Positions 57,482 through 63,985 of a DNA stretch of 64,000 bases are shown one piece after another. The stretch is from Bdellovibrionales bacterium (GTDB lineage Bacteria > Bdellovibrionota > Bdellovibrionia > Bdellovibrionales > JAUICD01): contig OZ253553.1 in the NCBI GenBank assembly GCA_965262715.1, positions 672,001 to 736,000 of the forward strand, in the 5' to 3' direction. How positions within the stretch are numbered: the stretch's first letter is position 1; each line of letters starts with the position of its first letter. The notes below the pieces were generated by a model, which saw nothing but the letters and a program-made list of their open reading frames with translations, did not search any database and was not told where the DNA came from. Position numbers and translations under genes: made by a program.

Positions 57482-57946
57482 TTATAAAGAAGCTATCATT
57501 TTGCCACAAAATATATTAAATAGCTGTTTATCTATTGCTTCACATCTTAAGGGTTGATCGTTTTCTAAACTGACTTTTAAAGAGCAGTTATAAACTCTAT
57601 ACTGATTAAATTGATATTCACTGGATAGCTGGCCACACACTTCTAAAATCTCTTTGCCTTTAAATAAGTCACATTGAGTCTGACAAACATTGATAAAGGT
57701 GGCATTGCTACCTGTATTATTAACTCTTTCTATATAATCCGTATTAGGCCTGTATTTAGCATAAAAGACATACTGTGCAGCTTCAGTATCTTGCTTTAAA
57801 TGTGTGGATAAAAACTTTTGATCTGCTATATCCATATCCTTGTACATTTTAAGCCTTGCATTGTTGCAGATTAACCCTAGAAGGCCAATAATTACAATGG
57901 CTAGCAAGTAAAGTAATCTTCTAGAGCTTGTTTTTCTAAGTTTCAT
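57482..57946 (-). CDS. Pilin-cassette accessory protein, N-terminal TM, Cys-rich
   Basis: Conserved in both cassettes; six conserved Cys in the soluble domain. Confidence 0.8.
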   Translation of the reverse strand: MKLRKTSSRRLLYLLAIVIIGLLGLICNNARLKMYKDMDIADQKFLSTHLKQDTEAAQYVFYAKYRPNTDYIERVNNTGSNATFINVCQTQCDLFKGKEILEVCGQLSSEYQFNQYRVYNCSLKVSLENDQPLRCEAIDKQLFNIFCGKMIASL

Positions 57947-58088
57947 TTTTTATTTCCTAATTAATATGTTTTAATCTTTTTTATGTAAGAAACCCACCTT
58001 ACAAGAAAGGGATTGGTTTACCCTGTTTACTTAGTTACTTTATTAAACAAGTAAACCCACATTACCTTTAAATATGGGTTTATTTACT

Positions 58089-58322
58089 TCATAAAGAGAC
58101 TGGTTTTACAGCTTTTTGTTTTGACTGATTGTCTTTCACTCTCTTTTCTAGAAGATCAATTCTTTTGTTTATATGCATGACTGATTTGCTATTGATACCT
58201 GAAAGCATATATAAATGTGAAAAGACTTTCATACCTAAAATACAGCCTATGCTTAAAGAAATAGTGACAGCAATAGCAAGTTCTAATAAATAAAATCTTT
58301 TATTAAGCTTTATATTTTTCAT
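58089..58322 (-). CDS. Small pilin-like membrane protein (degenerate prepilin motif)
   Basis: KR|FYLLELAIAVTI keeps F1/E5 but has Arg at -1; conserved in cassette 2. Confidence 0.7.
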   Translation of the reverse strand: MKNIKLNKRFYLLELAIAVTISLSIGCILGMKVFSHLYMLSGINSKSVMHINKRIDLLEKRVKDNQSKQKAVKPVSL

Positions 58323-58406
58323 AAAACTCTCTTTTGTTTTTGGTAAATGAATAAAACCCACATTATAGCAATGTGGGTTATTCTTTAATTTAAGATTTTA
58401 TGAAAA

Positions 58407-59108
58407 TTAAAGCCCACTTTTTATATTTATAATTTCTTTTCCATAAGTTATAAGCCATTGATCGGCCTCATCTCCTCCTATATCACCACTTGCGCCTATA
58501 ACAAAACGTCGCTGTATTTTGTTCAGCTCACCATTATTCCAAAGGCCACCACAAGTACCACACGCCCCAGTTCCTGTACAAACTAATGCACCAGTGGCAC
58601 ATGAACATGTTCCGCAAGTACCAGGTTGAGGAGATGCAGGAGTATGACTATATGTATTAGCTACATAAACCTGTAATAAAGCAGCATTATCACAAAAAGT
58701 TGCTTCTCTGCAACCGTCAGGGTCATTTGTATTTACTGTACTATTTAAAACTGTTACTATTGGGCCTCTATAGCCTGCATCGGTACGGTTTGGTATGCTA
58801 GGATTAGCTTTGCTGGCATCAGTCCAGCCTACAGCATATTTAGGAACATCTCCAATGCTTTCAAATCCTATTTGTTGAAAAGATGCTGATAAAAAATTCC
58901 ATTCGTTTTGAAAGGTTATTTGGCTTGCATATAAGCCACTTAACATTGTTTTAGATTCTACCTGCTGTGCTTTTCTTTGAAACTTCTGATAATTAGGTAT
59001 AGCGATGGCAGCTAATATACCAATGATCGCGACCACCACCATTAACTCCACTAGTGAAAAACCTTTTTGATTTTTCATTTTATTATATTTTCTTAAGAAC
59101 TTTTTCAT
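58407..59108 (-). CDS. pilA: Type IV major pilin, Cys-rich variable C-terminal domain
   Basis: [25 protein letters not shown]; first gene of the cassette, followed by hairpin AACCCACATT/AATGTGGGTT. Confidence 0.9.
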
Positions 59109-59294: not shown

Positions 59295-59457
59295 ACTGTA
59301 ACTTACGTACAAAAGTTACAGTATCAAGTTATTAAAATAACTGCCGATATAATAAATTGAAAGACTTTAGACAGTGATGGTAATTGGTCTGGAAATGGCC
59401 AAAAACATCAATGATTTTAAGGTTGCAGGACTGTAACTTATGTACGTAAGTTACAGT
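59295..59457. promoter_or_regulatory. Two 28-bp 11-6-11 palindromic sites flanking a 107-bp segment with a sigma28-like promoter
   Basis: ACTGTAACTTA-CGTACA-AAAGTTACAGT (59295-59322), ACTGTAACTTA-TGTACG-TAAGTTACAGT (59430-59457); TCAA-N15-GCCGATAT at 59324-59350 on the + strand. Confidence 0.6.
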
Positions 59458-60049
59458 GCTAAGTAGTTGAAATTATTGGAATCCTAGACTATCTAGTCTA
59501 GCATTGAGACAACATTTAAGTTTAGAAAATTATAAACTTGTTGCATATTGATAAATAGTTTGTATTTGAATAAAACAACTTCTTATATTTTGATTTTAGC
59601 GAGAAAAAAACTCAAGAAAAGATTTCCTTAAAATGACGTAAAAAAATGAAGATATCCTTATTACTAAAAAATAAACATGCTTTTGAGGTAGTCAGCTTTT
59701 TTCTGAAGATGTAAATCTTCAGGCTGACTACCCAAAAGTGGTCAGAGACCAGTTTATTTTTAGTGAGAGCAATGAATAATGATTTAGATGATTTCGGTGT
59801 TGTTGAAAAATTATAGCAGGCTTTACGAAATAGGCGTAAGACAAGTAGCCAACAAGAGATAAAATAAGTATAAGGCACATAGGTTCTATAGAATCTATGG
59901 AAAAAGCCTGCTATACGCTTTTAAATCTGAATATCTATTTTATGTAACACTAAGATAATCCCACAAAAGGTAACCAGCCTCTAAGAAATAATATCTGTCA
60001 GTTACAGGTATTAACTTTAATTTTAAATTTAATGTTATTGTTCTTAGAT

Positions 60050-60988
60050 TTATTTTAGAAAATCTGTTGCTTCATAAGAGTAAAGTATTTGCCAGCATAT
60101 CGTTTCAATAAATTTAAATAGCTGCCCTTTCTTTGAAAAATCTGCTGGGATAATGATGTTAGCTCTACTATCTAAGCTTAGGTTTTCAAGTTTTTTCTGA
60201 ATATATTTTCTATCACTTTTGAAAACATCTTTGTCATAAACAATAACACCATATCCGCCACGGTCTTTGACTACAGATAGAGCAGGGATATCAGTATCTC
60301 CATCACCTATATAGACTATGTCAGAATATTGTGACCAGAGGTCGGTTTTTAATAAACGTTTATTTACTTTTCTACTTGAATCTTGAAATGTTCCCTTTGC
60401 TATTTCAAATACAGATCTAGTTTTCATAGTTTCATCCATGCAAAAAATAGGTACATTTATAAATTCATTATCAACAGATTGTTCAACTATATATTTACAT
60501 CCAAATGTGTAGGTTATTAAATCCTTTGGGAAAATTTCTACAATTAAATCTTTTAGGCCAGCAGATACAATAAAATGATGAATGTTGATTTTACGTTTTT
60601 TAAATCTAGAGTTATTTTCTAGATTTTTTATCTCTTGCAAAAACTTTTGAACTTTATCATATACATTGATTTTAGGAACGATAAATTTTTTAAAAAATTC
60701 TCTATTTAGAGGAGTTTGTCTTTGATTAGCTATTTGACCAAGTGCATGCATCCAAACAGGAGATTCAGAGGCTAATATTTGTTCTGTAGACATTGTCCCG
60801 TCAGAAGACGCACCTTCTTCTTTTGATTCTTTGATTAATAATTTAACTCGATCCCAAAACTTTGCAGGATCATCTTTTAAGATGTCTCCTATAACTATAC
60901 TTGTTGAATCGGTATAGGTTTTTTGAGAACTTCTATTAGGAATAAGTGTTCCATCAAAGTCCCATATAATTGAAATATTACGGTTCAT
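60050..60988 (-). CDS. HAD-like hydrolase
   Basis: WDFDGTL, IVSAG, K, YIGDGDTDIP. Confidence 0.88.
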   Translation of the reverse strand: MNRNISIIWDFDGTLIPNRSSQKTYTDSTSIVIGDILKDDPAKFWDRVKLLIKESKEEGASSDGTMSTEQILASESPVWMHALGQIANQRQTPLNREFFKKFIVPKINVYDKVQKFLQEIKNLENNSRFKKRKINIHHFIVSAGLKDLIVEIFPKDLITYTFGCKYIVEQSVDNEFINVPIFCMDETMKTRSVFEIAKGTFQDSSRKVNKRLLKTDLWSQYSDIVYIGDGDTDIPALSVVKDRGGYGVIVYDKDVFKSDRKYIQKKLENLSLDSRANIIIPADFSKKGQLFKFIETICWQILYSYEATDFLK

Positions 60989-61423: not shown

Positions 61424-62041
61424 TTAAAGACCGTTTTTTATATTCATCATGTATTTTCCAGTAGGTTTAGGCGCAGCTTGACCTATACCCATCTCCCAAT
61501 GATCTTCTTGAGTTCCTCCTAAATCACCTACAGCGATGACGATAAAGTTAGGAGAAAACTTCTCAGTGTTATCTATCTTTGCATCAGTAGGAATTGTGAG
61601 AGTTGTTTGAGGCAGATAAGTGCAGTCTCCTGAATTATTACAAAAATCTTCTGTGTCAATTCTTGTTTTGCTAGCATTGTCCGGAACTGGTGGGCCATCA
61701 TAATCTAATAGGGTTGATGTAGTACCCGCCACCCAATCACCCGGATCCACTGTACCTAACACATTAAAACCTGTTTTATAATGAATATCACCGCTTGGTG
61801 AAAAGCCTAATTGTATAAAGTTGGATGTAGAGTATCCCCATTCAGAATTAAAAGCTATATTCGAAGTGTATATACCACCTAATATTAACTTAGGTTCAAG
61901 TTGCCTGGCTTTCCTTTGATACTTTTGATAGTTAGGTATCGCAATCGCGGACAATACACCAATAATAGCAACTACAACCATCAACTCAACAAGTGAAAAT
62001 CCCTTTTGATTTAATATTAATATCTCTTTTATCTGTTTCAT
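61424..62041 (-). CDS. Type IV pilin (second pilin of cassette 2)
   Basis: Class III signal peptide; about 18 substitutions versus the mature 56857-57468 protein by manual comparison. Confidence 0.93.
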   Translation of the reverse strand: MKQIKEILILNQKGFSLVELMVVVAIIGVLSAIAIPNYQKYQRKARQLEPKLILGGIYTSNIAFNSEWGYSTSNFIQLGFSPSGDIHYKTGFNVLGTVDPGDWVAGTTSTLLDYDGPPVPDNASKTRIDTEDFCNNSGDCTYLPQTTLTIPTDAKIDNTEKFSPNFIVIAVGDLGGTQEDHWEMGIGQAAPKPTGKYMMNIKNGL

Positions 62042-62054
62042 AAATATCTACCTT

Positions 62055-62519
62055 TTATAAAGAAGCTATCACTTTGCCACAAAATATATTAAACAGCTCT
62101 TTATCTATTGCTTCACATCTTAAGGGTTGGTCGTTTTCTAAAGTGACTTTTAAAGAGCAGTTGTAAACTCTATACTGATTAAATTGATATTCACTGGATA
62201 ACTGATTACAAACTTCTAATATCTCTTTACCTTTAAATAAGTCACATTGAGTCTGACAAACATTGATAAAGGTGGCATTGCTACCTGTATTATTAACTCT
62301 TTCTATATAATCCGTATTAGGCCTATATTTAGCGTAAAAGGCATATTGTGCAGCTTCAGTATCTTGCTTTAAATGTGTGGATAAAAACTTTTGATCTGCT
62401 ATATCCATATCGCTATACATTTTAAGCCTTGCATTGTTTACAAATAGACCTAGTAGGCCAATAATTACAATGGCTAGCAAGTAAAGTAATCTTCTAGAGC
62501 TTATTTTTCTAAGTTTCAT
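62055..62519 (-). CDS. Pilin-cassette accessory protein, copy 2
   Basis: Near-identical to 57482-57946. Confidence 0.8.
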   Translation of the reverse strand: MKLRKISSRRLLYLLAIVIIGLLGLFVNNARLKMYSDMDIADQKFLSTHLKQDTEAAQYAFYAKYRPNTDYIERVNNTGSNATFINVCQTQCDLFKGKEILEVCNQLSSEYQFNQYRVYNCSLKVTLENDQPLRCEAIDKELFNIFCGKVIASL

Positions 62520-62661
62520 TTTTTATTTCCTAATTAATATGTTTTAATCTTTTTTATGTAAGAAACCCACGTTACAAGGAAGGGATTGGTTTACCCTGTT
62601 TACTTAGTTACTTTATTAAACAAGTAAACCCACATTACCTTTAAATATGGGTTTATTTACT

Positions 62662-62892
62662 TCATAAAGAGACTGGTTTTACAGCTTTTTGGTTTGACTG
62701 ATTGTCTTTCACTCTCTTTTCTAGAAGATCAATTCTTTTGTTTATATGCATTACTGATTTGCTATTGATGCCTGATAAGAGATATAAATGTGAAAAGACT
62801 TTCATACCTGCAATACAACCTATGCCTAAAGAGATTGTGACAGCGATAGCTAGCTCTAATAAATAAAATCTTTTAAGCTTTATATTATTCAT
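62662..62892 (-). CDS. Small pilin-like membrane protein, copy 2
   Basis: Near-identical to 58089-58322. Confidence 0.7.
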   Translation of the reverse strand: MNNIKLKRFYLLELAIAVTISLGIGCIAGMKVFSHLYLLSGINSKSVMHINKRIDLLEKRVKDNQSNQKAVKPVSL

Positions 62893-63014
62893 AAAATCCT
62901 CTTTTGTCTTTGGTAAATGAATAAAACCCACATTATAGAATAGAAATGTGGGTTATTCTTAATTTAAGATTTTATGAAACCTAAAGACCACTTTTAAATT
63001 TATAGTTTTTCATA

Positions 63015-63929: not shown

Positions 63930-63985
63930 ACTGTAACTTACGTACATAAGTTACAGTATCAAGTTCCTAAGATTATTACCGATAT
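63930..63985. promoter_or_regulatory. Third 11-6-11 palindromic site plus sigma28-like boxes upstream of pilA copy 2
   Basis: ACTGTAACTTA-CGTACA-TAAGTTACAGT (63930-63957), the exact reverse complement of the 59430 site; TCAA-N15-ACCGATAT at 63959-63985. Confidence 0.6.

Follow-up and report, generated by a model that had tools for sequence, protein, structure and literature searches.

Switches of the kind reported here are already known from fimS, Mpi and RecV. As described in a preprint (bioRxiv 10.1101/2022.09.20.508701), fimS, for which IHF is essential, is a single locus of 314 bp in which a short promoter segment ahead of an operon for a pilus subunit can be inverted; its repeats have 9 bp, and the recombinase genes are next to it. 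IHF sites lie beside and inside that switch, a bias toward OFF is possible, and its recombinases, FimB and FimE, are small tyrosine enzymes without the amino-terminal domain. Mpi of Bacteroides fragilis and RecV of Clostridioides difficile are each described as one trans-acting enzyme that serves many scattered switches of surface structures: at least 13 regions for Mpi, a serine enzyme, and several for RecV, whose sites are mostly unrelated repeats (PMC5903667). In XerS/difSL and XerH/difH, one recombinase gene is paired with one palindromic site (PMC5357621, PMC2731167). Finally, inversion in Moraxella chooses a type IV pilin gene (PMC11868660).

Here we describe a locus in a window of 64,000 nucleotides (the whole stretch of DNA that was analysed) from the genome of an uncultured member of the Bdellovibrionales, where an initial annotation had proposed an invertible sigma28-promoter switch upstream of the pilin gene pilA. 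The switch was borne out and its extent had been underestimated, since there are really 18 loci and three gene classes. A family of 18 near-identical flip switches appears to govern whether genes for pili and other surface proteins are on or off. By analogy, each locus would work like fimS and the whole set like the Mpi and RecV regulons, as these are described in the sources at hand (PMC5903667, PMC11868660).

There are also clear differences from each precedent. Compared with the one fimS locus, the switches number 18-22 per genome and are scattered; they have 11-6-11 sites and a FliA-like promoter, lie ahead of type IV pilin genes, and their candidate enzyme is encoded at a distance. Unlike the switches of Mpi and RecV, they all use a common site of 28 bp, and the gene of the candidate enzyme belongs to the core of the order and has a single site in the other genera examined. 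The enzyme has about 180 aa rather than the approximately 356 aa of XerS and XerH (PMC5357621), and it coexists with a canonical dif. The switch arms are unlike the XerCD dif core, and the genome of the window and that of its sister species carry only one Xer-size recombinase each. In contrast to Moraxella, it is the promoter that is switched here and not the coding sequence, and no IS110/Piv-type gene was found in either genome. We take the Moraxella pilin inversion to proceed by the Piv mechanism. What is apparently new is the lineage, the control of all major pilins and the co-option of an undescribed core recombinase module. In the openly accessible literature covered, which takes in the inverton catalogues (PhaseFinder, PhaVa) through a review that cites them, we found no report of inversion phase variation in Bdellovibrionales or of the short recombinase.

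An inverted-repeat element upstream of pilA

The features of the element and its surroundings are collected in Table 1. Below, G000 denotes the genome of the window, G001 that of the sister species and C1 the coordinates on the G000 contig; both genomes are single contigs. The 28-mers beginning at 59295 and 59430 are 96% complementary across a gap of 107 bp. Their 11-6-11 layout was initially annotated with correct positions and spacers, but site 1 has AAAGTTACAGT as its right arm, which differs at one position from the TAAGTTACAGT that had been given. The promoter-like string TCAA-N15-GCCGATAT does point away from pilA, whose start at 59108 lies 187 bp from site 1. Cassette 2 likewise keeps its site and TCAA-N15-ACCGATAT, with a diverged 15-bp spacer, and the predicted partner of that site, bearing a TGTACG spacer, was found exactly 135 bp on, just past the window end.

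Table 1. Coordinates of the features discussed in the text (window positions unless prefixed G000:C1)
Feature	Position	Strand	Remarks
Recombination site 1, gene-proximal	59295..59322	.	ACTGTAACTTA CGTACA AAAGTTACAGT; 11-6-11, one arm mismatch
Recombination site 2, gene-distal	59430..59457	.	ACTGTAACTTA TGTACG TAAGTTACAGT; spacer is the reverse complement of the site 1 spacer
Core, 107 bp, almost certainly invertible	59323..59429	.	majority orientation (17/18 copies); putatively OFF
FliA/sigma28-like promoter TCAAG-N15-CCGATA, away from pilA	59324..59350	+	-10 box 59343-59350; putative function
IHF-like motif in core, abuts site 1, overlaps -35 box	59325..59337	-	2 mismatches here; 1-3 across copies
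Second IHF-like motif in core, 11 bp offset from site 2	59406..59418	+	2 mismatches; weak
IHF-like motif outside core, abuts site 2	59460..59472	-	0-2 mismatches in 18/18
Cassette 1, first gene: major type IV pilin of 233 aa	58407..59108	-	TIGR02532 above cut-off; PF07963
90-aa ORF, cassette 1	58089..58361	-	no family match
154-aa ORF, cassette 1	57482..57946	-	no family match; similar ORFs in other pilin cassettes
Second pilin, cassette 1, 203 aa	56857..57468	-	
Site 1 of cassette-2 switch	63930..63957	.	partner at window-equivalent 64065 (G000:C1:736065)
FliA-like promoter, cassette-2 switch, away from its pilin	63959..63985	+	
Major pilin, cassette 2, 242 aa	63015..63743	-	mature part 60% identical to cassette-1 pilin
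Remainder of cassette 2: 89-aa ORF, 154-aa ORF, second pilin (205 aa)	61424..62931	-	
Short tyrosine recombinase, 185 aa	G000:C1:892897-893454		
Ancestral-type module	G000:C1:892719-893454		relatives L022-L051, L072-L086
Eight lipoprotein-like genes behind switches	G000:C1:54661-86108, 873085, 1453021, 1629833, 2736758		

The two cassettes have almost the same sequence in their intergenic and small-ORF parts (57980-58400 and 62550-62980) but differ in the pilin bodies, a pattern that suggests recent duplication. Between the cassettes lies a gene for a HAD-family hydrolase (60050-60988), with a look-alike ORF at C1:997845. Palindrome-rich short repeats with TGGTCAGAGACCA- and GTTAAGGA-type motifs flank many switches, for example at 59600-59790 in the window and in the flanks of G001 switches. 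A terminator-like match at 59739-59751 stands in the path of the transcript that the OFF orientation would produce.

A family of paired sites in two genomes

A scan of G000 found 38 sites within two mismatches of the arm consensus, compared with none in each of five local shuffles; the sites are therefore not a product of chance. All but two form 18 pairs with a pitch of 135-136 bp, and the two singles have a TATATA spacer. In every pair (18/18) the spacers are reverse complements of each other, and a gene starts 154-352 bp away, always on the same side. The genes behind the pairs comprise eight major-pilin cassettes, eight large lipoprotein-like genes and two giant prepilin-type genes. Among the 22 prepilin-motif ORFs found in G000, all 10 major-type pilins are directly behind a site, eight of them behind pairs and two behind the TATATA sites; their pairwise identity is 36-86%. 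The eight switch-associated lipoprotein-like proteins have 717-1082 aa of varying length, about 5% Cys and a near-identical N-terminal 200 aa, and we give them this putative label from a QNC motif. No Pfam match was obtained for the giant prepilin-type proteins tested or for the one lipoprotein-like protein tested.

The TATATA sites (C1:1006325 and 1012447; L095) form an inverted pair, 6.1 kb apart, between two divergent major pilins that are 53% identical. Their spacer is palindromic, and TTAAG-N16-ACGATA occurs at one inner end only of the segment, which also holds toxin-antitoxin-like and ankyrin-like genes (labels given from reading the sequences). To judge by this arrangement, inversion of the segment would swap expression between its two pilins, an either/or logic similar to that reported for Moraxella (PMC11868660). 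A separate repeat with ACTGTAACTAA, five mismatches from the site consensus, occurs at C1:134040, 294236, 477488, 631343, 815592, 872454, 1486793 and 1820129. One copy, that at 872454, immediately follows a transposase-like gene, so the repeat is probably an IS end.

Among 40 relatives searched, G001 alone gave a match. It carries 51 sites, namely 22 pairs with TGTATA/TATACA spacers and seven singles, and its cores of 316-318 bp are of a design unlike that of G000. The pairs lie ahead of a pilin gene in 19 of the 22 cases and of a lipoprotein-like gene in two, and one has no ORF of at least 110 aa close downstream. Within each species, the spacers are invariant over all pairs. At five of the G001 single sites (L067, L068, L070, L071 and L091), about 60 bp of core A end are kept, followed by genes starting MKKYIFILF, some of them ankyrin-like and at least one with its own sigma70-like promoter. 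These single sites are possibly decayed switches or long-range partners.

Both orientations of the core occur. In G000, 17 of the 18 pairs are oriented as in the window, and only the core at C1:1186612 is flipped. This core matches the core at C1:1719672 at 107/107 positions as the reverse complement, compared with 38/107 in the same orientation, while the flanks of these twins are identical upstream (184/184) and downstream (50/50). In G001, where orientation was called from the outer flanks, two of the 22 pairs (L013 and L062) are flipped. The breakpoints are at the sites in each case, and the comparison is between paralogous copies, the window copy itself being seen one way. Among the matches listed from Logan contigs (4/13 runs), none shows a strand-change joint at the window switches; these contigs break at repeats and paralogues co-map. 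On the evidence of the flipped copies, the element in the window is almost certainly invertible, as had been proposed.

A candidate recombinase and its companion site

No tyrosine recombinase is encoded beside any of the 18 pairs in G000, and an orphan enzyme had been suggested as something to seek elsewhere in the genome. One was found. The PF00589 proteins encoded in G000 and in G001 are only two each: an XerD-like protein and a short one with 185-187 aa. The catalytic residues R-K-H-R-H-Y are invariant in 45 aligned homologues of the short protein, from a total of at least 120, and its predicted fold consists of the tyrosine-recombinase catalytic domain only (pLDDT 88), with XerH, XerA and HP1 integrase as the best structural matches. 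It resembles FimB and FimE in this reduced architecture. Membership of their family was rejected, as the protein scored 35.7 and 43.5 bits against FimB/FimE-type models whose cut-offs are 221 and 222. The other recombinases of G000 are the XerD-like protein (320 aa) and two serine resolvases. In G003, no PF00589 match was found at all.

A single copy of the short recombinase is present in 115 of 151 Bdellovibrionales genomes, with identities mostly of 55-70%, and at the same threshold it was found in no other order among 201 genomes of the phylum. A search for related loci with the recombinase protein alone returned two distant matches only. We found a site of the same 11-6-11 design beside its gene at 37 of 44 loci, compared with 1 of 40 random 3.5-kb stretches of G000; these loci represent 44 of the 115 genomes (the 30 best matches and 14 chosen mostly for complete assemblies), and the score was tuned on them. 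The other seven loci scored above the threshold, on its failing side, three of them only slightly so. The ancestral site has the form (A/C)CTnnnnCTT(A/T) TAGTTA TAAGnnnnAGT, followed by an IHF-like flank as at the switches, and usually lies 150-700 bp upstream of the gene. In G000 it is found 153 bp downstream and combines the ancestral TAGTTA spacer with switch-like arms. Single sites with nearly the switch arms also occur in G023, G009 and a metagenome locus (L119). In G001, no site adjoins the short-recombinase gene; the orthologous site, known by its flanks, is separated from it and carries the switch sequence itself.

Elsewhere the site is not multiplied. The module site was single-copy in 5/5 and 4/5 genomes searched, and a loose site pattern gave 27 and 54 matches in the two genomes of the genus and at most five, the control level, in the other 169. 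To judge from these counts, it would be this genus only that multiplied the site. In metagenomes, the exact 28-mer of G000 was not found, and a looser scan returned 29 loci, all single-site and none with a pilin, of which L119 adjoins a recombinase homologue of 63% identity.

Among 13 genomes in a single contig, 10 have the module about half-way along the record, at 0.487-0.525 of its length, a record coordinate rather than a distance from the origin, and in G000 it is 125 kb from the skew peak. In all five genomes tested, it lies 11-13 kb from a canonical dif core, and this core, GATAAGTTATATTATGTAA, is identical to the Bdellovibrio entry of Carnoy & Roten (PMC2731167). One of these genomes also has two Xer-size recombinases. 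With a separate canonical core so close by, we rejected an identification of the recombinase-linked site with the dif of XerCD; the Xer-like architecture that had been recognized in the switch sites is real as a layout, but they are not dif sites. A dif candidate in G000 near C1:1134071 was also set aside, given that the pattern had been fitted to it and had no exact match in the four relatives searched. In the text available from a 2023 review of the Bdellovibrio chromosome, xerCD/dif is mentioned alone (PMC11318664). The chances that the ancestral module serves chromosome dimer resolution are about even, a guess prompted by the fact that a solitary site has no recombination partner other than its sister copy; in a rival reading, the site would be an autoregulatory operator instead.

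Because of the likeness between the switch sites and its companion site, we regard the 185-aa recombinase as the likely enzyme of the switches. It is unlikely that they are real and flipped by another enzyme, the XerD-like recombinase or a serine resolvase. Several observations are compatible with such an enzyme: one XerD-like gene is kept in each of the two genomes, in G001 with the single ancestral-type site at a distance of about 3 kb; TGTATA, the spacer of G001, is also the dif spacer of E. coli in the table of Carnoy & Roten (PMC2731167); about 2.5 kb separate a serine resolvase gene from the C1:1843713 switch; and Mpi provides a precedent for a serine enzyme as master invertase (PMC5903667). 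However, the switch arms match the companion site of the short recombinase across the order and not the dif core, and in the XerD-like protein Q replaces the H of H-x-x-R. Furthermore, the switch sites have symmetric arms and, between them, a 6-bp spacer that is conserved and asymmetric, as suits a single tyrosine enzyme.

Promoter motifs and the orientation of the cores

FliA promoters of Bdellovibrio attack-phase genes have been reported as TTAAG-N16-CCGATA (Karunker et al. 2013, PMC3627812). G000 has 22 matches to T(T/C)AAG-N15-CCGATA, with a match in each of the 18 cores, and the flipped copy is the only one in which the motif faces the gene. Similarly, TA(A/T)AG-N16-(A/C)CGATA occurs on a single strand in 22/22 cores of G001, with ACGATA as the -10 box in 20, and faces the gene only in the two flipped copies. 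The spacing in the G000 switches is one base under the published N16, which is the spacing in G001 and in the TATATA switch; among non-switch matches in G000, N16 occurs 11 times versus four for N15, with about 2.8 expected for each. Since the -35 box overlaps an IHF-like motif in the G000 cores, only the -10 box (CCGATA in 18/18) counts as independent evidence, and this in cores of which 55 of 108 columns are invariant in any case. Upstream of genes, CCGATA occurs 50 times in sense and 40 times in antisense, the latter including some switch copies, and so shows little strand bias.

G000 encodes FliA (TIGR02479, 268 bits with a cut-off of 189.6), and no flagellin was found in this genome, which is 93% complete, or in G001. 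The fliA gene is also retained in G001 and G003 and is split in G004; flagellin was found in none of these genomes, while G002 has eight flagellin-domain matches.

With three core designs in agreement (G000, G001 and TATATA), it is likely that the majority orientation is OFF with respect to a FliA-type promoter. That the segment inverts with the reverse polarity or with a promoter of another kind, so that the majority would be ON through an unrecognized promoter or a removed block, is somewhat less probable still than the involvement of a different enzyme. Such a reading could appeal to the imperfect spacing and the overlapped -35 box in G000, and to a weak sigma70-like match (9/12) that faces pilA from outside the core at 59204-59177. 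But sigma70-like matches are at the level of chance (three found versus 3.8 expected), and in all three designs the single FliA-like motif is either directed at the gene in the rare state alone or confined to one end. Moreover, the co-expression of 17 variant surface genes with one silenced would be hard to rationalize.

Motifs were named IHF-like by comparison with WATCAANNNNTTR, which we take to be the IHF consensus; about 5% of random 30-mers come within one mismatch of it at any offset. Such motifs are found at fixed offsets in all G000 copies, 2 bp inside from site 1 and 2 bp outside site 2. Three genes of the HU/IHF family are present in G000, and IHF may have a role at these switches.

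Distribution of orientations

The skew toward one orientation departs from 50:50 with p ~1e-4 in G000 and in G001 alike. Among paired pilin loci, one of eight is flipped in G000 and one of 19 in G001. A rule of one pilin ON is suggestive only, as independent switching at the overall rate of 3/40 would give this pattern about one time in eight by a hand estimate. We also considered inversions between switch loci, which are not supported: GC-skew breakpoints show no clear coincidence with switch loci, and no chimeric flanks were seen when the G000 copies were aligned.

These counts come from consensus assemblies with 3/40 pairs flipped, and one could imagine that recombination is rare and that the flipped copies are historical one-offs rather than signs of ongoing phase variation. 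We consider this very unlikely, because the flipped core is identical to its twin over 107/107 positions when the pilins behind them are only 86% identical, because spacers have stayed invariant in all pairs of each species, and because a promoter facing away from the gene at 37 loci would be useless without flipping. We infer that switching is live in cells. The duplicated repressor operator without inversion that had been raised as an alternative, or an assembly artefact, is scarcely credible: the flanks of the two sites are indeed alike in direct orientation (64 nt, 77%) and the copies are repetitive, but the IHF-like motif beside each site accounts for that likeness, G000 and G001 are each one contig, and the operator is ruled out by the three flipped copies, found in two genomes, whose breakpoints all coincide with the sites and whose spacers are intact.

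Proposed mechanism

Taken as a whole, the following account of the element as one of 18 phase-variation switches is probably correct. A tyrosine recombinase acting in trans would bind the four 11-bp arms and exchange strands in the 6-bp spacers, as is typical of its family, and with spacers that are reverse complements the 107-bp core would be inverted. Each core would carry one FliA-type promoter, which in 17 of 18 copies, including that of the window, would fire away from the gene and leave it OFF; in a flipped core, its transcript would pass over the proximal site and continue into the operon of the pilin or lipoprotein. The enzyme would be the 185-aa recombinase, a core gene of the order that is normally found beside one site of the same design. 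The genus would have multiplied this ancestral site into switches whose spacers, CGTACA and TATATA, differ from the ancestral TAGTTA, and such differences should stop the classes of sites from recombining with each other.

The IHF-like motifs would bend the short loop. In the OFF orientation, one of them abuts each site, whereas in the ON orientation both would be at the distal site, and this rearrangement could, speculatively, give a strong OFF bias. The net effect would be a cell that displays one or a few of about 10 divergent pilins.

Biological implications

A wider interpretation is tentative. The approximately 180-aa recombinase and its one site may be an undescribed second terminus-linked module for chromosome upkeep beside XerCD/dif, which one non-flagellated genus might have domesticated into genome-wide antigenic variation: 18-22 switches with new spacers that place every major pilin behind a FliA-type promoter and are biased to OFF, so that about one pilin is made per cell, for prey or host choice or for phage evasion. 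A core single-site recombinase whose site was multiplied is a plausible origin for a master invertase. The small enzyme and its spacer-coded sites may also serve as a genetic tool. The ancestral module is common in the order, including in large-genome, fully assembled members, and its role should thus be open to direct tests in a cultured relative. Bdellovibrio-like predators depend centrally on type IV pili for attachment to prey. A major-pilin repertoire that is switchable as a whole would offer these organisms a concrete mechanism for varying surface recognition.
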